Shown: piece after piece, positions 3,921-28,686 of the stretch
Numbering within the stretch: the first letter of the stretch is position 1
Layout of the letters: each line of letters begins with the position of its first letter
Virus record (IMG/VR): IMGVR_UViG_3300013094_000021
Length of the DNA stretch: 64,000 bases
DNA from: a virus
Taxonomy: Duplodnaviria > Heunggongvirae > Uroviricota > Caudoviricetes
Direction: 5' to 3' (one strand)
Program-made: the position numbers and the translations under genes
Notes under the pieces: generated by a model
Database searches by the model: none
What the model saw: the letters and a program-made list of their open reading frames with translations, nothing else
Told to the model about the DNA's origin: nothing

Positions 3921-3923
3921 AAT

Positions 3924-5098: not shown

Positions 5099-5125
5099 AA
5101 AATGTCCAATCGTGTATTTCTATGA

Positions 5126-5470: not shown

Positions 5471-5525
5471 TAGTTTTAGTGCTATAATATATTAAATAAA
5501 ACTTATTTTTAAAAAATAAATTAAT

Positions 5526-5870
5526 ATGAGTGTAAATCAAAACGAAATGAGAAAAAGCATCGTTAAAATGGAGGAGGAAATTAATCAGCAGTTAGCTTGC
5601 CTTCAAGCTACCGCTCCGTTCCTTCTATCATTGAGGGCTAGAAAAATATCTGAACTTGAATACATAATTAAAAAAATGGAAACTGAGTTTTCCGACGAAT
5701 TAGAGACTCGCGCTCAAAGAGTTCACGCCGAAATAATTAACCTAGAAAAGAAAATAAATTGGGAGCAGCGCGAATGTTCAAGGTTTGATGAAAAAATTAT
5801 CAAATTCAATGAAGCTAAAGAAAACGACCTTTTGAAAAAATTCTCAAAGCAAATATTAAAAAACAATTGA
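5526..5870 (+). CDS. coiled-coil hypothetical protein
   Basis: 114-aa ORF, heptad-like charged sequence. Confidence 0.4.
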   Translation: MSVNQNEMRKSIVKMEEEINQQLACLQATAPFLLSLRARKISELEYIIKKMETEFSDELETRAQRVHAEIINLEKKINWEQRECSRFDEKIIKFNEAKENDLLKKFSKQILKNN

Positions 5871-5888
5871 AATAATTAAATAAAAACC

Positions 5889-6167
5889 ATGATAAAAAAA
5901 ATAAAAGAGACGCTAAAAAGCGGTTTATTTTACCTACTATTATTCTCTCCTTCAATAGTAATATTTTCCTTCTTATATCTTTCACAGGCCCGTCTTGAGT
6001 TTGAAAAACAAAGGAAGGACGGCGCAAGCAAATATCCATTAATTCAACTTATTACAACTCAAGACCCATTAGTAGAAGGAAATCAAATGTATGTATATGT
6101 AAGGCTTAGTGATAATACATTCGCTTGGATTAGTAAAAACGGTTTCTCTGTCAAAACCAGCTTCTAA
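5889..6167 (+). CDS. small membrane protein
   Basis: 92 aa, N-terminal hydrophobic helix. Confidence 0.3.
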   Translation: MIKKIKETLKSGLFYLLLFSPSIVIFSFLYLSQARLEFEKQRKDGASKYPLIQLITTQDPLVEGNQMYVYVRLSDNTFAWISKNGFSVKTSF

Positions 6168-6228
6168 AATTCTATAACAAACTTGACTTTTTAATAGTTT
6201 AGTTTTAAACTATATTCATTCTAAAACT

Positions 6229-7188
6229 ATGTCATTACAATCAAAATATCCTAATATTGTCGGACAAACTTCCGTCCTAAATAAACTCGACTTCTTCGTT
6301 GAAATACAAAATAAAACAGGTTTCTTTCCTTTTGTTTTGTTTGCCGGTCAAAGAGGCTCTGGCAAAAACACATTAAGCGTTGACTTATCAAATCAATTAA
6401 AAAATCCTGAGAATTCAAAGATTAAACCTTGCTTTGAAATTAATAGCGCGACAATTGAAAAAATAGATGACTTTTATGCAGTTCTTGATTCATACGTTGT
6501 AAATAAAAATCATGTCACTTTAATATTTGACGAATTCCACGCTATAAGTAAAGTTGATGGACTGATTGATATATTTCTATCCATATTCAACACAAATAAT
6601 CAAATAAATAAAATCTCCAGAAATGGACTAGACTATTCTATTGACAAAAATAAAATAAGTTTTATCTGTATGACGAGCGAGCCTCAAATGCTGCCGGAAA
6701 CTCTCTTGTCAAGAATGGAAATAATTCAACTTGAACAACTATCTTTGAATGAGCTTTCCGCCATTATAAAAAAGAATTTAAAGGAAATTTCCGCCCCAGA
6801 AGAAGTCCTAAATTCGGTGGCAAGCGTTTCAAGAAACAACGGCAGAGAATCCTTTAAATTAGCTGAAAATATATACAAACATTTAAAAAATAAAAACAAA
6901 AACACGCTCCTTGAAGAAGATTGGAACGAAATAAAGCAAAAACTCGGAATAAGAAAGCACGGTATAAATAATATCGAATTTAATATTTTGAAATTTTTGA
7001 ATGCTAATCCAAACGGCGTAAGCTTGAGTCGCTTAAGTTCGGCCATGCAACTAACCGCCGATAGCTGTAGGCTTAATTTCGAGAGATTTCTTCTAGGTAA
7101 CGACTTTATTGAAATATCAGCCGGTAAAGGCAGACAGCTAACTCACAAAGGCAAACAATACATAAACCAATACCAAAATGAACATTAA
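6229..7188 (+). CDS. RuvB-like AAA+ ATPase
   Basis: Walker A FAGQRGSGKNTLS, Walker B LIFDEFHAIS, C-terminal winged-helix-like segment resembling RuvB. Confidence 0.55.
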   Translation: MSLQSKYPNIVGQTSVLNKLDFFVEIQNKTGFFPFVLFAGQRGSGKNTLSVDLSNQLKNPENSKIKPCFEINSATIEKIDDFYAVLDSYVVNKNHVTLIFDEFHAISKVDGLIDIFLSIFNTNNQINKISRNGLDYSIDKNKISFICMTSEPQMLPETLLSRMEIIQLEQLSLNELSAIIKKNLKEISAPEEVLNSVASVSRNNGRESFKLAENIYKHLKNKNKNTLLEEDWNEIKQKLGIRKHGINNIEFNILKFLNANPNGVSLSRLSSAMQLTADSCRLNFERFLLGNDFIEISAGKGRQLTHKGKQYINQYQNEH

Positions 7189-7540
7189 TCATAGTTATAT
7201 TTTTTTATTTATTAAATGCTGGGTTTCGCTCGGTTTAATTGGTTTTTTATTAGGCGGCGCTTGCCTAATTTTAAAGCAAGGTTTTGCTAAAAACTTTTCT
7301 TTTTTAATACTTTATTCATTAGTTTCAACTATTTGCGGGCCAATCATTCTTTTAAATTATATATTAAGGGGATGCACTCAATCAAATATAGCAACTTTGA
7401 TAGTTTATTCAAATAAATTTTACAAGAGAGTATTCAAGAGAAGAATCAAGATTAAATACAAAATATCCGTTCCGCATCCAAACTATGCCGTATGTTGCGA
7501 ACAAAACAAAAAATTACCTAAAAAAAATAAAACTATCTGA
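7178..7540 (+). CDS. membrane protein
   Basis: 120 aa, two hydrophobic helices. Confidence 0.35.
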   Translation: MNINHSYIFLFIKCWVSLGLIGFLLGGACLILKQGFAKNFSFLILYSLVSTICGPIILLNYILRGCTQSNIATLIVYSNKFYKRVFKRRIKIKYKISVPHPNYAVCCEQNKKLPKKNKTI

Positions 7541-7584
7541 AAAAATAATGAAATGGGCTGTAAAAACTGATAGTAAATACAACT

Positions 7585-7782
7585 ATGTCTAAAGATGACT
7601 TAAATAAGATAAGTAACGTCACAATGGGAGGAATCAATCTAAAAGACTGGCCGGATTTGTGTGATTCATTCGTCGAATCCTGCTTTATAGGAGAAAGACA
7701 GGCGACCGAAAGCGAACTGGAAGACATAAATAATAATCACGGTGAGATTGTTTACGAATTGGCCGTAGCAAGTATTTTTTAA
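7585..7782 (+). CDS. small acidic hypothetical protein
   Basis: 65-aa ORF on dominant strand. Confidence 0.3.
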   Translation: MSKDDLNKISNVTMGGINLKDWPDLCDSFVESCFIGERQATESELEDINNNHGEIVYELAVASIF

Positions 7783-8039
7783 ATTATGAACGATTTTCCC
7801 CAAATAAAATACCTCTCATGCGAGCCTTTTCAGATATCGGGCGTTGCTCAAAATATCAAACCAGAATTATTAACTTTTTTATATTTTTCGATATTTTGTT
7901 TGATTTACTTTTTAATAAAATTAACTAGAAAATGCCGCCAAGAAACACCCTTTTATTTAGTTGACTTTTTTGAGTTCTATTTTTATATTTTTGCAGTGGG
8001 ATTTTCTTGCAATGCTTTGTTTAGAATTTCCAATTTATT

Positions 8040-8771
8040 ATGGAATTAATTAGCAAAAATAAAAAAATATTAATTTTTTCGGACACTCACCAAGACGTTG
8101 ATAAGGCTGAAAAGATAATCAAAGAGGAGAGCGCGGATATAAATATTCACGTTGGCGACTTTTTTGATTCGATGTTTCATAACAATCAGGGGTTTATTCA
8201 AAAAACCTGCAAATTTATAGAAAAATATAGCAAATTAGAAAATCACTATTTCCTCTTTGGGAATCACGATTTGCCATATTTATACGAAAACCAATTCACG
8301 ATTTGCTCTGGTTTTGAAATTGTTAAAAAGACATATATAAATAATTCCTTGGATGTAAAAAAAATAAGAGAAAAATTTCTATGGTATATTTGGATTGACG
8401 ACTTTCTTGTTAGCCACGCAGGTCTTCATCCTTATTTTCTTCCTGAAAAAATGGAGATAAATAAGGTAAATATAGATAAATTTCTTAAAGAGGAACAGGC
8501 CGAATGCAATCATAAACTTTTAAATGGCTTTCCGCATTGGTTTTTCTTGGCTGGAAAAGCCAGAGACGGAAAACAAAAGTTTGGCGGCTTGACTTGGCTA
8601 GATTTTGATGATGAATTCAAAATAATAGAGGGAATTCCTCAAATCGTAGGACATACCTTTCATAGTAGGATTGGATGCAATAGAGGTAATTTTTGCATTG
8701 ATACCAATCTAAATTATTATTTAACCATAACCAATGGAAAATTTGAGGTTAAAAATTTCATTGACATTTAA
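8040..8771 (+). CDS. calcineurin-like metallophosphoesterase (second copy)
   Basis: ILIFSDTHQD, HVGDFFDS, FGNHD motifs. Confidence 0.6.
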   Translation: MELISKNKKILIFSDTHQDVDKAEKIIKEESADINIHVGDFFDSMFHNNQGFIQKTCKFIEKYSKLENHYFLFGNHDLPYLYENQFTICSGFEIVKKTYINNSLDVKKIREKFLWYIWIDDFLVSHAGLHPYFLPEKMEINKVNIDKFLKEEQAECNHKLLNGFPHWFFLAGKARDGKQKFGGLTWLDFDDEFKIIEGIPQIVGHTFHSRIGCNRGNFCIDTNLNYYLTITNGKFEVKNFIDI

Positions 8772-8796
8772 AAAAAAGCCTTTACTATAAAAACAA

Positions 8797-9162
8797 ATGC
8801 AAGAAATAAAAGTCGCAAAAATGGTAAAAGGCAACGCCATCATCTTCACGCCAAAAGAAGTTGGGGCCGAAAAGCCATTTTCCGAATCAGCACCTAAATT
8901 AATCGCTGAAAAATCGGAAAACGCAAATAAAAAAATAAATGAATATAAATGCTGCATTTGCGGCGGCGTTGTCTCTCTAATGAGAGCGGCAACACTTTTT
9001 GAGATTGGCCGCGCTCCAGAACTTTTTAATTGTATGGCTTGCGCTAGTAGCGCGGACGTTAAAAAAATGAAAGCTATACAATCTAAATCCACAATACTTA
9101 TCCCAGCTTTTATAAAAAGAGAAAATGAATGCTCATTTGCTCACATTACGGAGATTGATTGA
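8797..9162 (+). CDS. cysteine-rich hypothetical protein
   Basis: CCICGG...CMAC zinc-ribbon-like. Confidence 0.4.
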   Translation: MQEIKVAKMVKGNAIIFTPKEVGAEKPFSESAPKLIAEKSENANKKINEYKCCICGGVVSLMRAATLFEIGRAPELFNCMACASSADVKKMKAIQSKSTILIPAFIKRENECSFAHITEID

Positions 9163-9428
9163 TGAAAAAAGATTTGATTCCAGAAGAAAAATCTGTTGCA
9201 ATTTTAGATGAAGGATGCTATAATGTCCTCATAACTAACGAAGGAAAGATAATAGAAAATAATCTTTTCTTTCGCAAAGAGTCGGCGGTTTCTAGGTTTT
9301 TCAACCTGTTGGTCGAGTTTTCAAGTTCAACTCTTGGAATGGATGATTTGCAAAAATTCATAAAATTAGGCTTATTTGAAAACGGAAAAACGAAAATATA
9401 CTTTTCAGAGCCAAAAATAAACAAATAA
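9159..9428 (+). CDS. hypothetical protein
   Basis: 89-aa ORF, start overlaps previous stop. Confidence 0.35.
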   Translation: MMKKDLIPEEKSVAILDEGCYNVLITNEGKIIENNLFFRKESAVSRFFNLLVEFSSSTLGMDDLQKFIKLGLFENGKTKIYFSEPKINK

Positions 9429-9432
9429 TTAT

Positions 9433-9639
9433 ATGTTAAAATCAGGTGATAGAGTCAGAGTCCTAAAAAGAGGAGAAAATTCATTGGTTTTCAATGAAAT
9501 CGGCAAAGGCGTTGTCCTTGCCGTTGCGAGCGGAAAGCATTCTGATTGGATTAAATATCTTGACAGAGATTGGCCTAGCGTTGAATGCGGCGAATGGATT
9601 TGTGTAAATTCAAGTCGCGTTCAGGTTAGAAAAATTTAG
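9433..9639 (+). CDS. hypothetical protein
   Basis: 68-aa ORF. Confidence 0.3.
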   Translation: MLKSGDRVRVLKRGENSLVFNEIGKGVVLAVASGKHSDWIKYLDRDWPSVECGEWICVNSSRVQVRKI

Positions 9640-10030
9640 TTTACTTATAGCTAAATTTTAATCTTTAAAATCTATAAAAAACTTATTCCAAGCTGAAGAA
9701 GGTGAACACTCTCGTTTTGAAGACATTCCAGTTGAAAAACTTTGCAAAGACGCCTCTCATAATCCTCCGACTCACCTACATATTCCATACGGAAAAATTT
9801 GTATTCATATTTGTCCGACCTGCCGCCGAAAGCTAATAATTCAGCCTCCGCAAATTTCTTTCTAATTTTTCAGAAATTCCTTGACAGTCTATTTTTTTTC
9901 TTTATTATGTATTTGTCGTTAATAAAAAACAAAAAAAATAAAAGAAAAAATAATATGATTGCAATTATCCTTGTCGTCGCTTTCGGAGTTAGTCTAGCTA
10001 ACCGGATTTAACAAAAAAGACAATAAAGTT

Positions 10031-10492
10031 ATGGTATTTTTAGAAAAAAATATTCTTGATATAGAAAATGGCATAATCTGTCAGTCGGTAAACTGCCAAA
10101 AAGTTCAGGGTTCCGGTTTGGCTAAACAAATAAGAGATAAGTGGCCGGATGTTTATAGCGGATATATTGAGTATTCTAATCGTTTCCGCATGGACTTTGA
10201 GAGGCTTGGCGAATATCATATTGTCCAAGTAGGTAAAAAATTAGCTGTTTTAAGCATTTTCGGCCAGCTTTTTTATGGAAACGATGGCAAGCGATACTCC
10301 GATTATTCCGCTATTAACTCCGCTCTTAAAAGCATTGCTAGAGATAGATATTATATGAAGGAAACTTATTATTTTCCATACAAAATTTTTTCAGACCGTG
10401 GCGGAGCCGATTGGAGCATTGTTAGCAAAATGATTGAATATTATTTTCCCAATGCAATAATCTGCAAGCTTCCAGAAAAACAATTCTCTTGA
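10031..10492 (+). CDS. macro domain protein (TARG1/OARD1-like ADP-ribose-binding/processing)
   Basis: GIICQSVNCQKVQGSGLAKQIRDKWP resembles macro-domain N-terminal signature. Confidence 0.5.
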   Translation: MVFLEKNILDIENGIICQSVNCQKVQGSGLAKQIRDKWPDVYSGYIEYSNRFRMDFERLGEYHIVQVGKKLAVLSIFGQLFYGNDGKRYSDYSAINSALKSIARDRYYMKETYYFPYKIFSDRGGADWSIVSKMIEYYFPNAIICKLPEKQFS

Positions 10493-10516
10493 CAATAAAA
10501 AAATCCTCTTTATAAT
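10489..10516 (+). promoter_or_regulatory. sigma70-type promoter (TTGACA-16-TATAAT), representative of >60 near-identical copies
   Basis: cttgacaataaaaaaatcctctttataataa; same extended motif upstream of most genes. Confidence 0.6.
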
Positions 10517-10547
10517 AATCCAGACAAAACAAAAAATCTAAAAAACT

Positions 10548-10763
10548 ATGTTCTCAAACGCTAAAATTAAATTCACCAAAGGCAAAGCTATTATCGAAAT
10601 TCCAGAGAGCATTGCCAAGAAACTATATCCTAAACAGGAAAAGGAAGCCGATATTTTCCTGACAGTCACCAATGGAATTCTTCAAGGCTCCGCAAAGTCG
10701 CCAGATACCTTCATTCCGCTAACCGAGGTTACGGAAGAGGATTTTGTCAAGCAAAAAGATTGA
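10548..10763 (+). CDS. hypothetical protein
   Basis: 71-aa ORF behind consensus promoter. Confidence 0.35.
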   Translation: MFSNAKIKFTKGKAIIEIPESIAKKLYPKQEKEADIFLTVTNGILQGSAKSPDTFIPLTEVTEEDFVKQKD

Positions 10764-10849
10764 TAAATAATTAAAGGAGGGATAAAATTCAGAATAATCT
10801 TGACAATAAAAAACAAATCCTTTAATATAAACGGACGAATAAAAAAACA

Positions 10850-11713
10850 ATGAAAACCAATCTACGCAAAGCAACTAAAGACTTCATGCTCGGAACCGAC
10901 CCCGAACTATTGCTTTCTCACGGCGGACAACCTGCAAAGTTTTTCGGACAAGCCCATGGAAAATTCGGACTTGACGGGAACGGCAGAACTTGCGAATTGA
11001 GAGTTGACCCTTCCGCCAATCCTCTCGAATTGGTTTCTCAAATCCACACTCTTTTCAAGGATTATGCCAAGAAATATCCAGTCTCTCTTAAATTCAATTG
11101 GGATGCTGGCTCGTTTGTTCACGGCTTTCCTATCGGCGGACACGTTCATTTTGGCGTCTCAAAGTTCAACCTAGACCACGCAACCGCAAGCGAAGTTATT
11201 TCAAATTATTGTGGCGCGCTATCTCTATGTATTGAAGATACAAAAGAGGCGAAAAGCCGCCGTCAAATCAAGGAATATGGCGGCTATCACGATTTCAGAC
11301 CCCAAGCGCACGGTTTTGAACACCGCAGTTTTTCAAGCTGGCTAACCAGTCCGGCGGTTGCTTCGGCGGTTTTGTGCCTCTGCAAGACGGTAATGTTTGA
11401 AATGCTCAACAATAAAGCGTTTTCTCCTACTCAATATTTCGACGCCAATACCTTCCACAAGGTAGAAAAGCAAGACATTAAAAAGAAATTTCCTTACGTT
11501 TGGAAAGAAATAACCGAAATGCAGCTTTATCCTAGATACAAAAAGCACATTGACGTTATCCATTTTCTAATTACAAAAGATTTGAGTTGGTATCCTAAAA
11601 ACTCTCTTAAAGAGGTTTGGGGGCTAACAGAATTCGCAGTTAAGGAAGAGCGAAAGATGATTTCACTAGACGAAATTTGGAAAACCAACAACAAAAATGA
11701 GCATAATTTTTAA
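10850..11713 (+). CDS. YbdK/GCS2-like carboxylate-amine ligase (amidoligase)
   Basis: N-terminal GTDPELLL (GxDxE) and GGHVHFGV (HxHxG) motifs typical of glutamine-synthetase-like amidoligases; paralogue of 20169. Confidence 0.5.
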   Translation: MKTNLRKATKDFMLGTDPELLLSHGGQPAKFFGQAHGKFGLDGNGRTCELRVDPSANPLELVSQIHTLFKDYAKKYPVSLKFNWDAGSFVHGFPIGGHVHFGVSKFNLDHATASEVISNYCGALSLCIEDTKEAKSRRQIKEYGGYHDFRPQAHGFEHRSFSSWLTSPAVASAVLCLCKTVMFEMLNNKAFSPTQYFDANTFHKVEKQDIKKKFPYVWKEITEMQLYPRYKKHIDVIHFLITKDLSWYPKNSLKEVWGLTEFAVKEERKMISLDEIWKTNNKNEHNF

Positions 11714-12080
11714 ACAATCCGACTTCAATTTAGATAAAGTCAAAAAACTCTGCGCCTTTGGCGAGCAGAAACTTAAATTCAAATACTGGATTTACGGTTT
11801 GGGGGACTTTAATTCTAATCCGCCTGTTAAAATTGAACACAATTTTGAAATATTTAAAGAGGGTGGTCAAAAATCCATCTATAAATTTTTCAAAGGCAAC
11901 GGTATTGCCGTTCAATTTGAGGATAACAAAAAGGACGATTATATCAATATCGGCTTAAGAAAAGATGTTCGCGAAGACGTTTCGGTTTCCGCCGCCATCG
12001 TGAAAACTTTGATTCAATTCAATGAAGGCTTGATTGATTTAAACGAAAAGCCTGAAAAATTGGTTGGCATACCTAAATAA
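11697..12080 (+). CDS. hypothetical protein (paralogue of 29326..29742)
   Basis: shared SxDFNL... and IGLRxDxRxDxxxSAAIV segments with 29326 ORF. Confidence 0.45.
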   Translation: MSIIFKQSDFNLDKVKKLCAFGEQKLKFKYWIYGLGDFNSNPPVKIEHNFEIFKEGGQKSIYKFFKGNGIAVQFEDNKKDDYINIGLRKDVREDVSVSAAIVKTLIQFNEGLIDLNEKPEKLVGIPK

Positions 12081-12149
12081 ACAAACATAGAAAAAATCTT
12101 GACATTGAAAAATAATCCTTCATAATAAACTCAACAACAAAACAAATAT

Positions 12150-12602
12150 ATGGCTGAAAACAAAAAAACATTGGAACTGTGCAAACTAACAATTTCATCC
12201 TCCCCCGAAAGAGGTTTTGAAATCTTCCTTCAAAGCGAATATGACTTCAACAAGCTTTTCGCCGCCAAAGGTGATAAAACCTTCAATCTCGGCGGGGTAA
12301 AATGCGGCATTCCTCGCAATGGCGATGGCTATCAGTTGCAAGGTGTTAGAGGTTACTTCAACACCCATTCTGAAACATTTGAATACGAAGGTTTTCTCAA
12401 CCTTTCTCTCCTACTCGCCAAGGATATTAAAAACGGCGTAACCTTCAATTTCGGCGTTTTTCCTATCAGTCAGGAAAAGATTCAGCAATACGCAGAAAAC
12501 TTCAAGCAACAGGTTAAGATGATTTATCTGACCTACATGAAGACCATCAAATATTCGGTTGTTTTCAATACTGTCACGATTGAAGAAGAGCAACACGATT
12601 AA
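12150..12602 (+). CDS. hypothetical protein
   Basis: 150-aa ORF behind consensus promoter. Confidence 0.45.
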   Translation: MAENKKTLELCKLTISSSPERGFEIFLQSEYDFNKLFAAKGDKTFNLGGVKCGIPRNGDGYQLQGVRGYFNTHSETFEYEGFLNLSLLLAKDIKNGVTFNFGVFPISQEKIQQYAENFKQQVKMIYLTYMKTIKYSVVFNTVTIEEEQHD

Positions 12603-12610
12603 TCTTAAAT

Positions 12611-13528
12611 ATGTTCAAATTTATTGACAAAATCGGCCTTGAAATAGAAGGCGGGTGGAGCAAGTCTAGGAGCGACTTAACTCCCGACGGAAGCGTTAGA
12701 CTTCAAGACTTCGACGATTCAGAGGTTGCAATGTGCGGCGAGCTTATCAGCAAGCCATTCGCGTCAAAAGAACTTTGCGAGAAATTTATCTTGTCAAACT
12801 GGCCGACTTCCACGCAACCTAAATGCGGCTTTCATATCCACTTCTCTTTAAAGGATATCTCCTATTATGTCGCTTTAATGTCGCCGGAATTTCTAAATTA
12901 TTTTTGCGATAAAATGTCCGAATTCGGAAAAAGTTATCCAATTCAAAACGAGCAATTTTGGGACAGGCTCGCCGGAAACAACAAATTTTGTCGCAAAGCT
13001 TACGAAGGCGAATTTCAAATCAGAGCCAAGAAAAAGAATGACTGCAATAGATATACCATTCTTCATTATGCTTATGGAATTCATAAGACGATTGAATCAA
13101 GACTTCTTCCGACTTTTGTAAGCGCGGAAACTGCATTGGCGGCTTTTAACGCCACCATATCAATTGTAGAAGAATATCTATCTAAAAAAGAAATCAAGCC
13201 ATTCAACTTTAAAATCGAGGATAATGTCTCCAACGAAGACCATACCTTTGAAAAGCGCGACGAGGAAACTATTACAGCCGAAATTCCGAAACAAAAGCCG
13301 ATGACGAAATTTAATTTCTTTGAGGCTAAACTTGGAAAAAACAAGTCTATTCCCAATAGACTTAAAAATAAAAAGAATACTTATGAAGGCGGAAATTTTG
13401 TATCTGTTTTCACAGACTCATACAATAATGGCAACGAAACCCCAAAGTTTTCTTACAAAAAGGTAACAGCCTATGAGGACTATATAACCACCGAATTAAC
13501 TTCCACTCCTAGCGTTATTATTTATTGA
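12611..13528 (+). CDS. YbdK/GCS2-like amidoligase
   Basis: IGLEIEGGW (GxExE) and CGFHIHFSL (HxH) motifs; paralogue of 36252. Confidence 0.5.
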   Translation: MFKFIDKIGLEIEGGWSKSRSDLTPDGSVRLQDFDDSEVAMCGELISKPFASKELCEKFILSNWPTSTQPKCGFHIHFSLKDISYYVALMSPEFLNYFCDKMSEFGKSYPIQNEQFWDRLAGNNKFCRKAYEGEFQIRAKKKNDCNRYTILHYAYGIHKTIESRLLPTFVSAETALAAFNATISIVEEYLSKKEIKPFNFKIEDNVSNEDHTFEKRDEETITAEIPKQKPMTKFNFFEAKLGKNKSIPNRLKNKKNTYEGGNFVSVFTDSYNNGNETPKFSYKKVTAYEDYITTELTSTPSVIIY

Positions 13529-20168: not shown

Positions 20169-21065
20169 ATGAATAAAAATAACCAGTTCACTATCGGCGG
20201 CGACCCAGAGGTTTTTATCTCCGGCAAAAACGGCGAAATTCATTCATCCATTCCTATCCTTAAGCGCGACAAGCATAATCCGATTGTTCTTGACAAGAAA
20301 AGCGGCGTAAAGACTTATGCCGACAATTCTCTGGCGGAAATGGCTTTCAATCCAAGCAAAAGCAAGAAAGAGTTTGTCGAAAAATACCGCAAAGCCTTCC
20401 TCGGACTCCAAAAATATCTTGGCAAGAATTATCGAATCAAAATTCAATCCGCACACTTCTTTAAGGAAAACGAGCTTGAAGCCGCACATGGAATTGACCC
20501 GATGCAAGTCGGTTGTTCTCCTGAATTTAACCATTGGAAGCGCGAAGTTAATCAGCTTGGCGAATTCACCAATACAATGCGTTCCGGCTCGTCTCATATT
20601 CACATTGGACATGAAATGTTCAAAGATATCAACAACAAGGAGCGCGCCTTGAAGATGATTGAAATTTTCCTTGGTTGCTCCTCTGTCATTTGGGACAATG
20701 ACAAGACTTCTTCCGTTCGCCGCGAAAAATATGGCACAAGCGGCTCGTTTCGCCCCACCGATTATGGATTTGAAACGCGCTTTATGTCCAACTATATGCT
20801 CAATTCTCCGAAATTGGTTGAATTGGCATACGATTTGATTGAATTCTCTCTTTCCTTTGTTTTTAACGACAAAGACGCCGAAATTCTCTCAAAGGTTAGT
20901 GTTGAAGACGTTCAAAATGCAATTAATAAATGCGACAAAGATTTGGCCGTTTCGGTTTTGAAACAGGCCGGACTTACCGAAGAACTCTTCAAAAGAGTCG
21001 TCGAGCAATCCAAAAAGAGCTATTCCACGAAAGATTTCTACAAGGAGTGGGATATCAAAGTTTAA
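20169..21065 (+). CDS. YbdK/GCS2-like amidoligase
   Basis: GGDPEVFI and SSHIHIGHE motifs; paralogue of 10850. Confidence 0.5.
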   Translation: MNKNNQFTIGGDPEVFISGKNGEIHSSIPILKRDKHNPIVLDKKSGVKTYADNSLAEMAFNPSKSKKEFVEKYRKAFLGLQKYLGKNYRIKIQSAHFFKENELEAAHGIDPMQVGCSPEFNHWKREVNQLGEFTNTMRSGSSHIHIGHEMFKDINNKERALKMIEIFLGCSSVIWDNDKTSSVRREKYGTSGSFRPTDYGFETRFMSNYMLNSPKLVELAYDLIEFSLSFVFNDKDAEILSKVSVEDVQNAINKCDKDLAVSVLKQAGLTEELFKRVVEQSKKSYSTKDFYKEWDIKV

Positions 21066-21897: not shown

Positions 21898-22548
21898 ATG
21901 AATAAAACCAAAAGAATCGCCTACGTTATCGGCGTCGGCAATCAAGATTACGGCTATGGCAATTGGATGCAGATAGATAGATTCACAAACGATATTCGCG
22001 AGGCTAATTTTTGCATAGGTCTTGGCGGCAGCGACGTTTCACCAAGTTTTTATAATATGCCAGACAGCGGGCTTTGCCATTCCGTTTATTCTGTGGATAT
22101 TCAGGAATACAAAGACTACAAAAAAGCGATTGAATTGAAGAAAAAAATCGTCGGCATTTGCAAAGGTAGCCAATGGCTTTCAGTTTTGGCGGGCGGCAAA
22201 CTTTTCCAGCATATTGACCACGACTATATCCACAAAATCAAAACCTTTGATGGAAAAGAGCTTTTAACCAATAGCCTACATCATCAAATGAGCGACTTGG
22301 AAGAATTGGCCGAAAACTCCGATTACAAATTGCTCGCATGGTCTGAAAGTCTTTCCAATTTTCATATTGACGGAAATAGCGATGACAGAAAATGCAGCAA
22401 AGAACCGGAAGCAATTCTCTTTCCGAAAATCAATGGACTCGGCTTTCAAATGCACCCAGAAATGATTTTTAAGTCGGCTGGCAAGAATCATCCTTTTATT
22501 AATTGGAGCAGAGAAATACTTAATAAATTTTTGGATAATAAATTGTGA
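21898..22548 (+). CDS. class-I glutamine amidotransferase-like / peptidase C26 (gamma-glutamyl hydrolase-like)
   Basis: IGLGGSDVSPSFYN, ICKGSQWLSVLAGG, HHQM, FQMHPE (Cys-His catalytic pair context). Confidence 0.55.
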   Translation: MNKTKRIAYVIGVGNQDYGYGNWMQIDRFTNDIREANFCIGLGGSDVSPSFYNMPDSGLCHSVYSVDIQEYKDYKKAIELKKKIVGICKGSQWLSVLAGGKLFQHIDHDYIHKIKTFDGKELLTNSLHHQMSDLEELAENSDYKLLAWSESLSNFHIDGNSDDRKCSKEPEAILFPKINGLGFQMHPEMIFKSAGKNHPFINWSREILNKFLDNKL

Positions 22549-22856
22549 AACTAGCCTTTCCATTTAAAAAAATAATTTCTCCGCGTAAGAAAACAAGGTG
22601 GTTTTTTTGTTTTTACAACTTGAAGTGTGACGAGAATCAAATAATTGGCGAATCAATTAAATTTTTAGACGCCTTCGACAATCAAAAAAACAAAATTCCT
22701 AGAAAAGTAAAAGAATTAATTAAAAAAGAATTCAATTCAAAGAAATTTTTCTTTTTTAGAAAGTATAGGCCAGATGATTATGTTCTCATCAAAGTTTTAA
22801 AAAACGATAAATGGGTAAGTATTTACTTCTGGCCTGTGAAAAACCTTGACATTTGA
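22545..22856 (+). CDS. hypothetical protein
   Basis: 103-aa ORF, start overlaps previous stop. Confidence 0.35.
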   Translation: MKLAFPFKKIISPRKKTRWFFCFYNLKCDENQIIGESIKFLDAFDNQKNKIPRKVKELIKKEFNSKKFFFFRKYRPDDYVLIKVLKNDKWVSIYFWPVKNLDI

Positions 22857-22883
22857 ACCTGAAAGCCTTAAAATAAAAACACA

Positions 22884-23675
22884 TTGAAAACAATCAATCT
22901 CTACAATCTTAAGAATGTTAAAGTTATCTTATTTCCAGATAACCAGCCTCACGTTATCATTGAAAACATTCAAGCTGGCGATGAAGTTAGACTTGTCGCG
23001 CCACTTCGCACAAGTCTTGAAGTCCTTCAAATGCTGGAAGTATCGAATGCCATAGATGAAATTGGCGCAATCAAGAAAGATTTGGTAATTCCATACCTAA
23101 TGGGCGCAAGATTCGACAGAATCATGCAAACCGGAGACAGTTTCGACCTTAAAGTAATTGCTAATTTGATTAATTCTTGCAATTTTCCAGTAGTTAATCT
23201 TTTTGATGTTCACAGCAAGGTTTCCACTGATTTAATTAAAAACTCTCGCAGCCATAACAATAGCAAGCTTTTAAAGGCTTACGACAAGAAAAATGTTGTT
23301 TTGATTTGCCCAGACAAAGGCGCGCTAGGACGAGTTGACTTTTACAAGCAAAATCTTGATATTAAAGACGTTGTTTATTGTGAAAAAAGCCGCGATTTGA
23401 GCAACGGCAACTTAACTCTGACCGTTAAAAATCCTGAAAAATGCGAAGGGCAAAATTGCGTTTGTGTTGATGACATTGCCGATGGCGGTGGGACGTTTCT
23501 TGCTATCGCCTCTCAAATCAATCCCGCACATTTTACTCTTATAGTTAGCCACGGCATTTTTAGCAAAGGTTTTTTAAAATTAGAGGAGTTTTTTGACGAA
23601 ATTATTACGAGCAACAGCTATCGAAAAAACTACGAAAGTAATATAGTTAAGGTGGTAGATTTAAATCTCTATTGA
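22884..23675 (+). CDS. ribose-phosphate pyrophosphokinase (Prs)-like protein; possibly an ADP-ribose pyrophosphokinase (Adps-like)
   Basis: IPYLMGARFDR (cf. IPYFGYARQDR), VCVDDIADGGGTF PRPP-binding loop. Confidence 0.6.
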   Translation: MKTINLYNLKNVKVILFPDNQPHVIIENIQAGDEVRLVAPLRTSLEVLQMLEVSNAIDEIGAIKKDLVIPYLMGARFDRIMQTGDSFDLKVIANLINSCNFPVVNLFDVHSKVSTDLIKNSRSHNNSKLLKAYDKKNVVLICPDKGALGRVDFYKQNLDIKDVVYCEKSRDLSNGNLTLTVKNPEKCEGQNCVCVDDIADGGGTFLAIASQINPAHFTLIVSHGIFSKGFLKLEEFFDEIITSNSYRKNYESNIVKVVDLNLY

Positions 23676-23771
23676 GATTATTTGGACTGCCTAAAATTCA
23701 CACACCAAAATAAAACTTGACTTTAAAATAAAAATCATTAATATAAACAGACAACAAATTAATATAAAACA

Positions 23772-25235
23772 ATGAATCTAAAAACCAATTCTTTTCTTTT
23801 TTGCGACTTCTATAAGTGCGGCCACCCTTTCCAATATCCAGACAAGACTCAATTTGTTTACATTAATTGGACGGCGCGCGGCTCTCGCCTTGAAGGAATT
23901 AATGACATGGTATTTTTCGGCCTTCAATATTTTATTAAAGGCTATCTTATCCAAAACTTTAATGATAATTTTTTCAAACGTCCAAAAGACGAAGTTATGG
24001 CCGAATATAAGCGCATTATTCGCAATTCTCTTGGCGGCGATTTGCCTACTTATAGCCATATTGAAAAGCTTCACGATTTAGGTTATTTGCCTATTAAAAT
24101 CAAAGCTCTTCCAGAGGGCGTTAAAGTTCCTATGCGCGTTCCCTGTTTGACTATACTCAACACGCTTGAAGACTTCTATTGGCTTCCGAATTTTATTGAA
24201 ACCTTAATGTCGTCGGTTTTGTGGTTGCCTTGTAATTCGGCAACAATTGCCAATGCCTATCGAAAACTTTTGGATGGTTACGCCGAAAAAACAGGAATGC
24301 CAAAAGAATTTGTTCAATGGCAAGGACATGACTTTAGCTTTCGCGGAATGAGTTCCTTTGAAAGCGCAGTTACTTCCGGCATGGGTCACTTGCTATCCTT
24401 CACCGGAACGGACACCGTTCCGGCGATTGTAGGACTTGAACAATACTATAACGCCAATAGCGACAAAGAACTTATCGGCGGTAGCGTTCCAGCTACGGAG
24501 CATAGCGTTATGTGTTCTGGAGAGAAAGATAACGAACAAGAAACATTTGAAAGACTAATTACAAAAATCTATCCTAATGGAATCGTATCAGTTGTTTCTG
24601 ATACTTGGGATTTGTGGAGAGTTTTGACTGAATATCTTCCTAATTTGAAAGATAAAGTTATGGCTCGTAACGGAAAGCTTGTTATTCGTCCAGATAGCGG
24701 CGACCCCGTTTTGATTATTTGCGGCAATCCAGACGGAAAAACCGAAGCGGAGCGCAAAGGCGTAGTTGAATTGCTTTGGGATGTTTTCGGCGGAACGGTT
24801 ACAAGCAAAGGATTCAAGTTGCTTGACAGTCACGTTGGAGCGATTTATGGCGATAGCATCACGCTAAAAAGAGCGGATGAAATTTGCTCTCGCTTGATGG
24901 CTAAAGGATTCGCTTCGCAAGTCGTTTTCGGTATTGGAAGCTTCACCTATCAATACAATACTCGCGACACTCTAGGCTCTGCGGTTAAAGCCACTCATGT
25001 AACCATTGACGAAAAAGATATTAGTATCTCTAAAAATCCTATCACCGATAGCGGACTCAAAAAATCGGCCTGTGGATTGTTGCAGGTTGCAAAGGAAAAC
25101 GGAAAATACGTCCTGCATGATAACGTATCTTGGATTAAAGAAGCGCAGGGCGAATTGCAAACCGTATTTGTGGACGGAAAACTTGTTAAGGAATGGACGC
25201 TTTCAGAAGTAAGAAATAATCTAGCTAATTCTTAA
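23772..25235 (+). CDS. nadV: nicotinamide phosphoribosyltransferase family protein (NadV/NAMPT or Namat-like)
   Basis: DFYKCGH, FFGLQYFI, GTDTVPA, VPATEHS, VVSDTWD, IRPDSGDP all align with NAMPT signature blocks; 487 aa. Confidence 0.8.
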   Translation: MNLKTNSFLFCDFYKCGHPFQYPDKTQFVYINWTARGSRLEGINDMVFFGLQYFIKGYLIQNFNDNFFKRPKDEVMAEYKRIIRNSLGGDLPTYSHIEKLHDLGYLPIKIKALPEGVKVPMRVPCLTILNTLEDFYWLPNFIETLMSSVLWLPCNSATIANAYRKLLDGYAEKTGMPKEFVQWQGHDFSFRGMSSFESAVTSGMGHLLSFTGTDTVPAIVGLEQYYNANSDKELIGGSVPATEHSVMCSGEKDNEQETFERLITKIYPNGIVSVVSDTWDLWRVLTEYLPNLKDKVMARNGKLVIRPDSGDPVLIICGNPDGKTEAERKGVVELLWDVFGGTVTSKGFKLLDSHVGAIYGDSITLKRADEICSRLMAKGFASQVVFGIGSFTYQYNTRDTLGSAVKATHVTIDEKDISISKNPITDSGLKKSACGLLQVAKENGKYVLHDNVSWIKEAQGELQTVFVDGKLVKEWTLSEVRNNLANS

Positions 25236-25238
25236 TCT

Positions 25239-26024
25239 ATGACTAAAGAAAAATTAAAAATTTCAGAGCCTAAAAAAAATAGGGGCGCCCTATCCGAAGG
25301 TAGAAACAGAGGATTCGGCCAGTGTTTTGTTAAAAAAGTTGGTAATTTAATTGAAATGCCTTACCCTATAAGTGCTTGCGGCGACTTCATTAACGACCAA
25401 TTACATTCGCAAGTAACCGGAAAAAGCTGGAATATCCACGGGCAAAACAGTCAGAGGCACGAGGGGCTTTTTGACGAAAAAAATAATTGCGCCTATATGC
25501 TTGGCTCGGTTTTAACCATAAACAGAGGCGGCAAATACGACAACTACGACAGAGATTTGAAATGTCTGGAATCTAATTACTCTCATTTAGAAAAATTTAT
25601 TAATTTCTTTGAGAAATCTTTTAAATTAAAGAAAAAAACTTCCATTACTAGAATCAAGGAAAATTTGTATCTATTTAAATTACCTTTGTTTTGGACGGAA
25701 TCAATTTATTTAATTTCTCTTTATAAATTCCTGTCTCGCGTCGGTATTTTTTATGATGGCGGGAATCCTATGGATTTTTTGAATTCATTTGATAAGGACT
25801 CTGGCGACGTTTATATGTGGAGTTCAATCAAACCTAAAATAATCTCCATGATGAAAGGATTTATACCTAAATTTCCAATGAGCGCATGGGATGGTTGCCC
25901 GCATAATCTAGGGATTGTTTCGCAAATTTGGCCTAAAGAGGAAATGCAAAAACAATCTCAAAGAGCCAATATATCATCTAAAAAAATTACCGCGACCGAA
26001 AGACAGATTTGGAAGCCAATTTAA
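25239..26024 (+). CDS. hypothetical protein
   Basis: 261-aa ORF immediately after NAMPT gene. Confidence 0.45.
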   Translation: MTKEKLKISEPKKNRGALSEGRNRGFGQCFVKKVGNLIEMPYPISACGDFINDQLHSQVTGKSWNIHGQNSQRHEGLFDEKNNCAYMLGSVLTINRGGKYDNYDRDLKCLESNYSHLEKFINFFEKSFKLKKKTSITRIKENLYLFKLPLFWTESIYLISLYKFLSRVGIFYDGGNPMDFLNSFDKDSGDVYMWSSIKPKIISMMKGFIPKFPMSAWDGCPHNLGIVSQIWPKEEMQKQSQRANISSKKITATERQIWKPI

Positions 26025-26070: not shown

Positions 26071-27258
26071 ATGAAAGTTTTCACTAACGGCAGAGTTCCA
26101 ATCAAAAGCTGGTGCAATAATCCAGAAGCGGGAGCAATCGAACAGGCTACCAATCTCGCCAATCTTCCTTTTATCTTTAAATGGCTCGCTTTGATGCCTG
26201 ACACTCACCAAGGCTACGGAATGCCGATTGGCGGCGTTTTGGCGACCAATGGAGTCGTAATACCTAATGCGGTTGGTTCTGACATTGGCTGTGGAATGAG
26301 TTTCATCGAATCTGATATCAAAGAATGGGGCAGAGAGGATTTAATTGAAATTTTAAAGACTATCCGCGCCACTATTCCAGTTGGCTTCAACAAGCACAAA
26401 GTAAAGAAAACATCCGACTCAATTCCGTCTATTGAATCTCAATTCTCTAATGGCGAAAACCTCCCTATAATCAGAAAAGAGTTTGATAATGCTCTTTTTT
26501 CTGTTGGGACGCTCGGCGGCGGCAACCATTTTATTGAATTGCAAAAAAACGAATCCGGCAATCTTTGCGTTATGATTCATTCCGGCAGTCGAAATCTTGG
26601 CAAAAAAGTTGCCGACCATTACAATAAGCTCGCCGAAGAACTGAATTCAAAATACTTCTCTAGCGTTCCAAAAGAATATGATTTAGCTTTTTTGCCGCTT
26701 GATTCATCCGAAGCGCAGGAATATATTTCTGAAATGAATTATTGTGTTAATTTTGCATTGGCTAATCGTATGCAAATGATTTTTGAATGTAGAATGGCTA
26801 TTTGCGAGGCTTTTCAAAACAAGGTTGAAAAGGTTAATTTTTCTAATTTTATTAATATACCCCACAATTACGCCAGACTGGAAAATCATTTCGGCGAAAA
26901 TGTTATGGTTCATCGCAAGGGAGCGACCTCTGCGAAATTAAATGAATTAGGATTAATTCCGGGTTCGCAAGGTTCTAGTAGCTATGTCGTTCGCGGCAAA
27001 GGAAATGTCAATAGTTTTTCCAGTTGCTCGCACGGCGCGGGCAGAAAACTTGGGCGCAAAGAAGCTCAAAGAACGCTCAACATCGAAGAGGAAAAAAATC
27101 GTTTGGAAAAACTTGGCGTAATCCACGCCATTAGAAGCGTTGATGATTTAGATGAGGCTGCGGGCTCCTATAAGGACATTGACGTAGTTATGGAAGAGCA
27201 AAAGGATTTGATTGAAATCGTCCAAAAACTTCAACCTCTGGCGGTTGTAAAAGGGTAA
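26071..27258 (+). CDS. rtcB: RNA-splicing ligase RtcB
   Basis: MPDTHQGYGMPIGGV, GSDIGCGM, GGGNHFIEL, PHNYA, SCSHGAGR conserved RtcB metal/GTP-binding motifs; 395 aa. Confidence 0.85.
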   Translation: MKVFTNGRVPIKSWCNNPEAGAIEQATNLANLPFIFKWLALMPDTHQGYGMPIGGVLATNGVVIPNAVGSDIGCGMSFIESDIKEWGREDLIEILKTIRATIPVGFNKHKVKKTSDSIPSIESQFSNGENLPIIRKEFDNALFSVGTLGGGNHFIELQKNESGNLCVMIHSGSRNLGKKVADHYNKLAEELNSKYFSSVPKEYDLAFLPLDSSEAQEYISEMNYCVNFALANRMQMIFECRMAICEAFQNKVEKVNFSNFINIPHNYARLENHFGENVMVHRKGATSAKLNELGLIPGSQGSSSYVVRGKGNVNSFSSCSHGAGRKLGRKEAQRTLNIEEEKNRLEKLGVIHAIRSVDDLDEAAGSYKDIDVVMEEQKDLIEIVQKLQPLAVVKG

Positions 27259-27378: not shown

Positions 27379-28686
27379 ATGAAATCAAATAAAAAAGAAT
27401 TGGTTGAAAAATTAACCGAAGAAGGCGCGAAAGCCGCGCATATTACGCCTTATCAATCGCTTCGCCGCTCGGTTTTATCCACACTCCTTTTTGAAGACAA
27501 CTTTTATGAAGACGGAATTTCCGTATCTGAAAGAATTAAAGAATTAATTAAAGCCGTTTCGCCGGAAAAAGTCGCGGATTTGGCGATTGAAGCCAGAACT
27601 AAATTCAAGCTTCGCCATATACCTCTTTTTTTGGTTCGCGAATTGGCTCGTTACGAAAAATCAAGATACCTTGTGGCCGAAACTTTGTCGGCGGTTATTC
27701 AAAGACCGGACGAATTGGGGGAATTCCTTTCTCTTTACAACAAAGACGGAAAGCAACCTTTGGCCGCATCCGTCAAAAAAGGCTTGTCTCGCGCCTTCCA
27801 AAAGTTTGACGAATATTCTCTTCAAAAGTATAACGGTGGAACTCCCGAATATAAACTTCGCGACGTTCTTTTCCTCTGTCACGCCAAACCAAAAAATGAA
27901 GAGCAGGAAAATCTTTGGAAAAAATTGATTAATAATCAATTGGAAACGCCGGAAACTTGGGAAACCAAAATCGGCAAAGATGGTAAAAAAGAAGCTTGGG
28001 AGTCTCTTTTGCACGAAAGAAAGCTTGGCTCTCTCGCTCTTTTGAGAAATTTGAGAAACTTCAAAGTAAATGGAGTATCAGAGAAATTAATTAAATCCGC
28101 CATTTCGGAAATGAAAACCGATAGAGTCCTGCCTTTTAGGTTTATCACCGCCGCGAAATATTATCCTTCCCTTGAATCAGAACTGGAAGGCGCGATGTTT
28201 AAATGCTCAAAAAACATTGATAAAGTCAGCGGAAAGACTCTTCTTCTTATTGACGTTTCCGGCTCAATGGATAAGCCTCTATCCTCAAATTCTGAAATGA
28301 CTAGACTTGAGGCGGCTAATTCTTTGGCTATTCTAGCGCGCGAAATCTGCGAAGAAGTTAAAGTATTTACTTTTTCCAAGCAAATCATTGAAATTCCAGC
28401 TAGACGCGGATTTTCCTTGAGAGACGCTATTAACAGTAGCCAGCCTCACAAAGACACCTATCTGGGCGCGGCAATTAAATATTTAAACGAAAATGAATCA
28501 TTTGAAAGATTAATTGTTATTTCTGACGAACAATCGGACGATGAAGTTCAATTTCCTAAATGCCCGAAAGCATACATGATAAATGTAGCCAACAACAAAA
28601 ACGGAGTAGGCTACAATAAAAATTGGATTAATATTTCTGGTATGTCGGAGTCGGTTTTCGACTATATTCAAAATATTGAAGAATAA
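27379..28686 (+). CDS. rsr: Ro60-related protein Rsr (TROVE domain + C-terminal vWA/MIDAS)
   Basis: N-terminal TROVE-like region (LLFEDNFYEDG..., HIPLFLVRELA), C-terminal LLLIDVSGSMDKPL MIDAS motif; adjacent to rtcB as in bacterial rsr-rtcB operons. Confidence 0.6.
   Translation: MKSNKKELVEKLTEEGAKAAHITPYQSLRRSVLSTLLFEDNFYEDGISVSERIKELIKAVSPEKVADLAIEARTKFKLRHIPLFLVRELARYEKSRYLVAETLSAVIQRPDELGEFLSLYNKDGKQPLAASVKKGLSRAFQKFDEYSLQKYNGGTPEYKLRDVLFLCHAKPKNEEQENLWKKLINNQLETPETWETKIGKDGKKEAWESLLHERKLGSLALLRNLRNFKVNGVSEKLIKSAISEMKTDRVLPFRFITAAKYYPSLESELEGAMFKCSKNIDKVSGKTLLLIDVSGSMDKPLSSNSEMTRLEAANSLAILAREICEEVKVFTFSKQIIEIPARRGFSLRDAINSSQPHKDTYLGAAIKYLNENESFERLIVISDEQSDDEVQFPKCPKAYMINVANNKNGVGYNKNWINISGMSESVFDYIQNIEE

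Follow-up and report, generated by a model that had tools for sequence, protein, structure and literature searches.

The present analysis concerns two neighbouring genes in a 64,000-nucleotide stretch of viral DNA (Caudoviricetes; IMG/VR record IMGVR_UViG_3300013094_000021), hereafter called the window. Nearly all window genes are carried by the + strand, including a Prs-like open reading frame (ORF) of 263 amino acids (aa) with a TTG start (positions 22884-23675) and a NAMPT-like ORF of 487 aa (23772-25235), which are separated by an AT-rich spacer of 96 bp on the same strand (23676-23771). A third + strand ORF, located 12.4 kb upstream of the first (10031-10492, 153 aa), encodes a macro-domain protein. 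The two adjacent ORFs, designated here adps and namat, had been picked out in a first-pass annotation made by a model from the letters alone. The ORF call confirms both of them on the + strand, and the blocks IPYLMGARFDR and VDDIADGGGT, which had suggested a phosphoribosyl pyrophosphate (PRPP) synthetase, are present in the shorter protein. The two genes very probably constitute a phage NARP1 module, that is, a pair of enzymes (Adps and Namat) predicted to rebuild NAD+ from ADP-ribose (ADPR).

NARP1 was described in 2024 and occurs in approx. 4% of phages, and there is nothing conceptually new in the present case. In the published framework, the 'Prs + Nampt' operons of Bas63, SPbetaL1, and FADO encode Adps and Namat, jointly named NARP1 (Osterman et al., bioRxiv 10.1101/2024.02.11.579819). 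Adps converts ADPR and ATP into ADPR-PP, the pyrophosphate derivative of ADPR, and has no PRPP synthase activity; Namat forms NAD+ from ADPR-PP and nicotinamide and prefers ADPR-PP to PRPP (bioRxiv 10.1101/2024.02.11.579819). The same study showed that NARP1 overcomes Thoeris I, DSR1/2, SIR2-HerA, and SEFIR; with Kongming and SPARSA added to this list, the pathway is a general phage counter to NAD+-destroying defences. Recognition of NARP1 also corrects the misleading labels 'PRPP synthetase' and 'nicotinamide phosphoribosyltransferase', under which such proteins are filed.

Identity of the two enzymes

The longer protein has a full-length NAMPT fold, as had been recognised at first pass (PF04095, 3.6e-41; PF18127; PHROG 448, 1.7e-201; NCBIfam PRK09198, 573 bits). 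Over its whole length it is 56% identical to SPbetaL1 Namat, and it shares 30-33% identity with phage Nampt proteins. Among structures in the PDB, it scores 605 bits with SPbetaL1 Namat (9w5x/9w5w), 476 bits with 9ke8, and approx. 214 bits with human and other NAMPT. SPbetaL1 Namat has been solved in complex with NAD+, and an adenine 'selectivity clamp' was found to separate Namat from Nampt (Lan et al., PMC12774641). In particular, the SCH part of the clamp follows the mutagenesis-backed motif GS-X-phi-X-phi-X-phi-TRD, with an aromatic X at positions 3 and 7, and the SCL part contributes a stacking residue from the beta1-beta2 loop, which is R40 in SPbetaL1 and may be Arg, Lys, or Tyr (PMC12774641). 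The core of the SPbetaL1 enzyme comprises F189, R192, D215, R306, D308, and a catalytic His (PMC12774641).

These residues were compared in an alignment of 113 homologues. The window protein shares 19 of the 20 residues with which SPbetaL1 Namat contacts nicotinamide or NAD+; the only difference is a Ser in place of A362, which is also found in the other Namat sequences. The SCH motif (residues 389-399, GSFTYQYNTRD) matches that of SPbetaL1 letter for letter, and the SCL stacking residue, Arg39, aligns with SPbetaL1 Arg40. The clamp thus consists of Arg39, Phe391, Tyr395, Thr397, Arg398, and Asp399, and the core of Asp12, Tyr14, Phe188, Arg191, Asp214, His244, Arg306, and Asp308, within which the catalytic core shared with Nampt is kept (F188, R191, D214, R306, D308, and the catalytic His, H244). 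As a contrast set, four phage Nampt proteins were used, from a KVP40-like Schizotequatrovirus, RB43, an Aeromonas T4-like phage, and Xanthomonas phage LucasX, the Nampt gene of which adjoins a gene for NadM, a fusion of nicotinamide mononucleotide (NMN) adenylyltransferase (NMNAT) and Nudix. All four carry GGGLLQxxxRD at the clamp position. Neighbour-joining (67 sequences, 484 columns, 300 bootstraps) splits the window protein and the rest of the Namat group from these four with 100% bootstrap. Identities to the window protein in a tblastn search of a phage collection are likewise bimodal: T4-like and jumbo phages lie at 27-32% and most records at 35-60%, the latter group including, among the records listed, the Adps-carrying phages ICP1, Staphylococcus Kayvirus, Felix-O1-like phages, and mycobacteriophages. 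The NAMPT-like protein is hence classed as a Namat, with a predicted preference for ADPR-PP over PRPP.

The shorter protein is a type-I phosphoribosyltransferase by family (Pfam PF00156, Pribosyltran, 1.3e-10; PHROG 619 'ribose-phosphate pyrophosphokinase', 5.9e-58), with a match to the Prs N-domain that stays below the Pfam cut-off. It fails all curated Prs models, scoring 92.8 bits with TIGR01251 (cut-off 113) and 29-79 bits with the equivalogs (cut-offs 296-536). Its TTG start codon is backed by full-length homologues that begin with MKxINL. It has been reported that Adps proteins form a clade separate from Prs, that 97% of the clade members have an adjoining Namat, and that mutation of K162 inactivates SPbetaL1 Adps (bioRxiv 10.1101/2024.02.11.579819). 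A total of 150 Adps and Prs sequences was gathered from 79 bacterial-genome loci, 56 IMG/VR-contig loci, and annotated phage loci, together with E. coli Prs and viral and archaeal Prs; the viral outgroup consisted of 20 viral-contig Prs, 48-63% identical to E. coli Prs and without a Namat neighbour, and the archaeal outgroup of two fragments copied from PDB alignments. After removal of near-duplicates, a neighbour-joining tree with capped distances was built from 84 sequences and 252 columns (300 bootstraps). All non-Prs sequences form one clade with 99% bootstrap, apart from E. coli and viral class I Prs and the two archaeal fragments. This clade contains the window protein as well as those of SPbetaL1, FADO, the Felix-O1-type phage wV8 (Bas63-like), ICP1, Kayvirus, Halena, and PAK_P4. 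Within it, the window protein falls into a subfamily of 33 sequences (100% bootstrap) in which Chitinophagaceae chromosomal genes and contigs of uncultured phages predominate. The placement of both proteins with the Adps and Namat clades, and not with Prs and NadV, is the outcome that the first-pass annotation had anticipated when it proposed this comparison. A Namat gene adjoins 66 of the 74 clade members in the fetched DNA, and several of the eight exceptions (e.g., L038, L044, L133) lie on short contigs, where it was perhaps cut off; in the window, the vicinity to Namat is evident from the start of namat 96 bp downstream on the same strand.

The residues of the shorter protein agree with this placement. 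The catalytic skeleton shared with Prs is complete (Y71, R76, D78, R79, H110, P143-D144, G146, K168, R170, D196-D197, T204, and H223). Lys168 and Arg170 correspond to K162 and R164 of SPbetaL1, and K168 is invariant in all 122 clade members compared. Signature columns were defined as those that are (near-)invariant across these 122 sequences and different from all 21 Prs, a list of our own and no published criterion. By this list, Prs RQDR is R-[M/Y/F]-D-R in the Adps clade, Prs H-A is H-S, Gly is A147, Asn is G175, Ala is L219, and the Thr of the Prs DT.GT loop never occurs in the clade at position 201. In the window protein, all of these positions are in the Adps state (RFDR, HS, A147, G175, L219, and DGGGT without Thr201). 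It thus stands outside the housekeeping Prs group on both counts, its scores being below the cut-offs and the Prs-invariant RQDR, DxHA, and DT.GT being replaced by RFDR, HS, and DGGGT. A search of the PDB for an Adps structure found none. Taken with the tree, these residues identify the Prs-like protein as an Adps (ADPR-PP synthetase), the predicted substrate of which is ADPR.

Probable direct NAD+ reconstitution and its alternatives

The proposed mechanism follows that of the characterised NARP1 systems. NAD+-depleting host defences (with SIR2, TIR, or SEFIR effectors) would split NAD+ into ADPR and nicotinamide. Adps would then move pyrophosphate from ATP onto the 1'' position of ADPR to give ADPR-PP, and Namat would exchange this pyrophosphate for nicotinamide, yielding NAD+ directly, without an NMN intermediate and with no need of an NMNAT. 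The window pair resembles SPbetaL1 NARP1 in that adps precedes namat on one strand and no NMNAT gene was found, in the 56% identity, identical clamp motif, and same catalytic residues of its Namat, and in the catalytic Lys and Arg and the clade signature residues of its Adps. It differs from SPbetaL1 in that its Adps is approx. 30% identical and belongs to a separate subfamily (100% bootstrap), starts with TTG, and is encoded 96 bp from namat, whereas the SPbetaL1 genes overlap.

Genes that would point to another route to NAD+ were searched for in the window and beyond it. The first-pass annotation had recognised no NMNAT or Nudix gene, and a Pfam scan of the 76 other + strand window ORFs of at least 90 aa and one - strand ORF gave the same result (no PF01467, the CTP_transf_like/NMNAT family, and no PF00293, NUDIX). 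Pfam families of PnuC and NadR, which together represent NARP3 (a PnuC-like transporter and a NadR-like enzyme; PMC13464706), were not found among the window ORFs either. A Logan contig, which matches 10,687 bp of the window with 100% identity, extends the genome by 8.6 kb upstream; NMNAT, Nudix, PnuC, and NadR genes were not found in this extension, and a tblastn search with phage NadM returned nothing at E<=1 in the resulting 72.6-kb composite. The check for an NMNAT elsewhere in the genome, which had been suggested along with the original reading, thus came out negative over 72.6 kb of the 115.7-kb contig that the protein collection lists for these genes. RyDEP (PF02026), NADAR, ADP-ribosylglycohydrolase, and NrtR were not found in the window, and the genome has a NADAR gene approx. 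2.5-3 kb before the first base of the window.

The main alternative for the pair is classical nicotinamide salvage, in which the Prs-like protein would make PRPP, the NAMPT-like protein would make NMN, and a host NMNAT or an unseen phage NMNAT would complete NAD+, so that the pair would act as a NARP2-like or NadV-type supply boost. The database names of both proteins fit such a pathway, Namat enzymes keep PRPP-to-NMN activity in vitro, and the search for an NMNAT covered 72.6 kb of the 115.7-kb contig. NARP2 (NadV-NatV) of Vibrio phage KVP40, like NARP1, restores NAD+ with a NAMPT-fold enzyme and nicotinamide. It runs from PRPP through NMN to an NMNAT(-Nudix), no gene for which was found in the 72.6 kb, and its Nampt, approx. 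30% identical to the window protein, has GGGLLQxxxRD where the window protein has the Namat clamp. The identity of 56% to Namat as against 30-33% to phage Nampt, and the position of the Prs-like protein outside Prs (99% bootstrap) and under the Prs cut-offs, argue against classical salvage, as do the Namat clamp and the lack of an NMNAT or Nudix gene in the 72.6 kb. In addition, 94% of the phages that have a Nampt homologue of the KVP40 type were found to carry Nmnat as well (NARP2), and no phage has both pathways (bioRxiv 10.1101/2024.02.11.579819); in the prototype Bas63, the effect survived deletion of host NMN-using enzymes. Classical salvage is thus very improbable here, and the original preference for ADPR-based reconstitution over a Prs-NadV pair has held up against the clamp motif, both trees, and the search for NMNAT and Nudix genes.

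Several points nevertheless weigh against the assignment to NARP1. Identity of the window Adps to the enzymes that have been assayed, those of SPbetaL1 and FADO, reaches only 26-30% (30% to SPbetaL1), and the protein scores 59 bits with SPbetaL1 Adps, 63 bits with Sulfolobus Prs, and 49 bits with E. coli Prs. Because such pairwise scores cannot classify the protein, its placement rests on the tree and the signature columns; verified Adps lineages are similarly distant from one another (mycobacteriophage Halena versus SPbetaL1, 50 bits). The trees are neighbour-joining and not maximum-likelihood trees, and deep branching within the Adps clade is poorly supported (bootstraps of 3-35%). The NMNAT search spans 72.6 kb of the 115.7-kb contig, and such a gene could lie in the remaining approx. 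43 kb. In vitro, Namat enzymes accept PRPP as well and convert it to NMN (bioRxiv 10.1101/2024.02.11.579819; PMC12774641), and some NMN production is possible. Finally, the subfamily to which the pair belongs is known from sequence alone. On the other side stand the clade membership of both proteins, the retention of published catalytic, NAD+-contact, and clamp residues, the adjacency of the genes, and the 72.6 kb in which no NMNAT or Nudix gene was found. A NARP1 module remains the very probable reading, from which the substrates of the window pair and an anti-defence benefit are inferred.

The relatives of the pair bear on its origin and purpose. Its nearest homologues are not in isolated phages, the best identities in the phage collection being 33% (Adps) and 60% (Namat). 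The closest relative, an uncultured phage-like contig (L004), carries the same pair with 76% (Adps) and 89% (Namat) identity. Next come chromosomal relatives in Chitinophagaceae, including Ferruginibacter, Terrimonas, Lacibacter, Flavihumibacter, and Puia, on contigs of up to 6.5 Mb (51-59% for Adps, 61-73% for Namat). Of the 37 bacterial loci of the subfamily, 32 have NrtR as a neighbour, 21 a metallophosphoesterase, 13 NADAR, and 10 ADP-ribosylglycohydrolase; none of these four was adjacent in any of the 17 viral loci. Operons of the type nrtR-prs-nadV, including one in Cytophaga, were described in 2008; NrtR dissociates from DNA in response to its effector, ADPR, and why a separate 'prs' paralogue should be present was not explained (Rodionov et al., PMC2330246). 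A chromosomal NARP1 of Paenibacillus foliorum is active (Lan et al., PMC12774641). Taken together, this suggests that the Chitinophagaceae pairs are ADPR-induced housekeeping operons that recycle ADPR to NAD+, a reading that would explain the paralogue noted in 2008. The chromosomal pairs are the closest sequence relatives of the window pair (approx. 57% identity for Adps and approx. 70% for Namat), which lacks NrtR and a linked ADP-ribosylglycohydrolase and lies among phage genes (YopX, COOH-NH2 ligase, RtcB). By these relationships, the window module is a phage copy of a Bacteroidota-type ADPR-recycling pair. Since its closest relatives are NrtR-linked operons on Chitinophagaceae chromosomes, the host probably belongs to the Chitinophagaceae group.

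That the pair is instead a recently captured host operon of the nrtR-prs-nadV type with the same chemistry and another purpose, raising NAD+ for phage metabolism (e.g., for an NAD-dependent ligase or the phage's own ADP-ribosylation enzymes), is very improbable, although its closest relatives are chromosomal (55-62% and approx. 70% identity) and sit on Mb-sized contigs with NrtR and often ADP-ribosylglycohydrolase and NADAR nearby, the operons are ADPR-induced (PMC2330246), and a chromosomal bacterial NARP1 works (PMC12774641): NrtR is missing from the phage copies (0 of 17 viral loci), ADPR is plentiful only during NAD+ cleavage, deletion or knock-in of NARP1 in three phages altered the outcome only on NAD+-depleting defences (bioRxiv 10.1101/2024.02.11.579819), and the two purposes are not mutually exclusive. 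With NARP1 as the preferred assignment, this uncultured phage is predicted to resist NAD+-depletion defences, probably on a Chitinophagaceae-type host. With this instance, a family that has an experimental basis is extended to a deep Adps subfamily associated with Bacteroidota, and this subfamily is linked to the long-puzzling chromosomal nrtR-prs-nadV operons with their ADPR inducer.

The macro-domain protein and accessory genes

The protein encoded at 10031-10492 had been described at first pass as a TARG1-like macro domain that fits the same ADPR theme. The macro assignment stands, as judged by the profile, the AlphaFold model, and Foldseek, and the TARG1-like part is imprecise, since Poa1p, DarG, SCO6735, and BT1257 match better. 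Pfam gives no match for this protein even at E<5, and it hits the macro region of the NCBIfam DarG model at 7.4e-6, far below the cut-off. Not counting the protein itself, the family has 44 members, and PF01661 was detected in four of them. Compared with macro domains in the PDB, the family profile matches BT1257 (8e-14), SCO6735 (1.9e-11), DarG (1.5e-9), Poa1p (6e-8), and TARG1 (4.5e-5). An AlphaFold model built from a 43-sequence alignment has a predicted local distance difference test (pLDDT) value of 93.6 and a predicted template modelling score (pTM) of 0.88. Its best Foldseek match in the PDB is the ADPR-1''-phosphate phosphatase of yeast, Poa1p (6lfr, E=9.4e-11, TM 0.77), with DarG and BT1257 close behind at almost equal scores and TARG1 also near. 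On the strength of this model, the protein can be placed with confidence in the Poa1p/DarG/TARG1 class of macro folds.

It has been shown that a macro phosphatase named Adpp, the structural neighbour of which is Poa1p, turns NARP1 into NARP1-AP, which defeats the aRES defence (Osterman et al., bioRxiv 10.64898/2026.01.28.702374). A protein of this kind bears on the newest layer of the arms race, in which aRES makes ADPR-1''-phosphate and phage phosphatases undo it. The prospects that the window protein is an Adpp-type ADPR-1''-phosphate phosphatase are about even or slightly better. Like NARP1-AP (Adps-Adpp-Namat, as in Vibrio phage Gary; bioRxiv 10.64898/2026.01.28.702374) and the PAK_P4 system, the window genome encodes a Poa1p-class macro domain, and this protein shares 27% identity (E=1e-11) with the Poa1p-like macro encoded two genes downstream of the PAK_P4 NARP1 pair. 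Moreover, close homologues adjoin NARP1 in related contigs. In L156, a 198-kb contig, the gene directly preceding an Adps-NADAR-Namat operon encodes a homologue with 57% identity, and in L004 a homologue with 52% identity is encoded two genes ahead of Adps. In terms of synteny, the macro gene keeps its place after a metallophosphoesterase gene and before the COOH-NH2 ligase block; a DSPc-Adps-X-Namat cassette adjoins it in L004 and is found 12 kb further downstream in the window. Because homologues adjoin Adps and Namat in related contigs, the macro gene is plausibly tied to NARP1 in function. If so, it would probably widen the input of the pathway by converting ADPR-1''-phosphate (an aRES-type product) or another ADP-ribose conjugate into free ADPR, as in NARP1-AP. 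This input step is the least certain part of the explanation.

A possible, somewhat less probable alternative is that the macro protein is unrelated to NARP1 and acts as an anti-DarT-type or other de-ADP-ribosylase that clears ADP-ribose from phage DNA or proteins. The distance of the gene from the pair speaks for it: the gene lies some 16 genes upstream of adps and outside the 'within two genes' range by which NARP1-AP is recognised (PF14519, PF01661, or PF20016), whereas the homologues in L156 and L004 lie inside that range. The common ADPR theme seen at first pass is accordingly supported by the related contigs and by the likeness to PAK_P4, and not by the arrangement in the window. A further homologue, in L155, has no NARP1 within 6 kb. 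The family profile fits BT1257, SCO6735, and DarG better than Poa1p, the Foldseek scores of DarG and Poa1p are nearly equal, and macro fold and sequence cannot tell a phosphatase from a de-ADP-ribosylase. Loop 2, the second phosphate-binding loop, reads FSDRGGADW (family consensus GCDRGGADW) in place of the usual GCGLxG (GCGLAG in NARP1-AP); the phosphatase activity is putative. Against an unrelated role stand the homologues near Adps and Namat in L156 and L004, two contigs that carry different Adps subfamilies, and the similarity to the macro beside the PAK_P4 pair. In addition, when HMMER aligns the ORF with the macro domain of Thermosipho africanus DarTG (7omu), a gap stands opposite the Lys in the FPTK segment of that chain. 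This Lys is presumably the catalytic residue of DarG and TARG1.

The related contigs suggest further partners. In L004, a module within 7 kb (6003-12773) comprises His_Phos_1, Metallophos, macro, a DSPc-like phosphatase, Adps, a PF15891 gene, and Namat, and in L156 the order is macro-Adps-NADAR-Namat (6001-9367). The position of the window spacer is thus filled by an extra gene in both contigs: NADAR in L156 and, in L004, the PF15891 gene, which encodes a nucleoside 2-deoxyribosyltransferase-like protein. In the same genome as the window, 2.5-5.4 kb upstream of its first base (L158:3289-6171), genes for His_Phos_1, a DSPc-like phosphatase, and NADAR are found, and the DSPc-like protein is 56% identical to that encoded immediately upstream of Adps in L004. 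These three are further candidate genes for ADP-ribose handling. The window itself holds two calcineurin-like metallophosphoesterase ORFs (1522-2094 and 8040-8771), the second of which precedes the macro gene here as it does in L004 (45% identity). It is conceivable that such enzymes process NAD+-derived nucleotides. The NARP1 partners described so far, Adpp and RyDEP, do not include PF15891 or DSPc proteins.

The window genome thus keeps homologues of most L004 module genes, scattered over approx. 30 kb. One might speculate that this phage lineage carries a dispersed, multi-input 'ADP-ribose funnel', the enzymes of which each feed free ADPR to Adps from inputs such as ADPR-1''-phosphate, cyclic ADPR signals, or ADP-ribosylated DNA or protein, but this is unlikely. 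If it were true, DSPc-like, PF15891-like, and DRGGADW-loop macro enzymes would appear in a role in which they had not previously been described.

A different arrangement was observed in L151, the Bacteroides crAss-like phage Kolpuevirus 'frurule'. There, at 3189-6541, a Namat-like gene (GSFTYQFKSRD) lies between two genes of approx. 270 aa, and the downstream flank is Prs-like; the order is reversed, or possibly two-copy, compared with the usual Adps-then-Namat.

Surroundings of the locus

The window is AT-rich, with a G+C content of 30-47% (mostly 32-40%) in 2-kb windows. Its gene content is phage-like and includes YopX, phiEco32-type COOH-NH2 ligases, GIY-YIG/NUMOD3, a pyrimidine-dimer glycosylase, a UvrD helicase, RtcB, and two tRNAs. 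A possible + strand promoter of the pair at 22846-22874 (TTGACA-17-TAAAAT, 11 of 12 positions of the sigma-70 consensus) stops 9 nt before the TTG start codon of adps; it is a consensus match only, and the promoter type of the host may differ. Sigma-70-like sites are not above chance in the region (14 observed versus 12.7 expected), and a scan for promoters and terminators gave counts no greater than in shuffled sequence.

Upstream of adps, a 103-aa ORF (22545-22856) has no family match and no homologue in any fetched locus. Downstream, a 261-aa ORF (25239-26024) begins 4 nt past namat. It was considered as a new accessory gene and rejected: it has no Pfam or PHROG match and only five homologues, and the two homologue contexts checked are related phage contigs with no NARP1 within 6 kb. 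Directly downstream of the pair there follow an RtcB RNA ligase gene (26071-27258; Pfam 1.5e-108) and a gene for a Ro60-like protein with TROVE and vWA domains (27379-28686), which form an RNA-repair or RNA-quality-control pair. Rfam at the gathering threshold detected two tRNAs only, tRNA-Met (CAT) at 47967-48042 and tRNA-Arg (TCT) at 48118-48193, and no Y RNA or other family near the Ro60-like gene.

COOH-NH2 ligase/amidotransferase genes lie at 10850-11713, 20169-21065, and 21898-22548, and one Peptidase_C26 ORF lies between 28730 and 44456. Altogether, the window carries two phiEco32-type COOH-NH2 ligase genes, several glutamine amidotransferase/Peptidase_C26 genes, and repeated YopX genes. 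Homologues of these ligase, amidotransferase, and YopX genes co-occur in L004, L153, and L155 and thus represent a conserved set.

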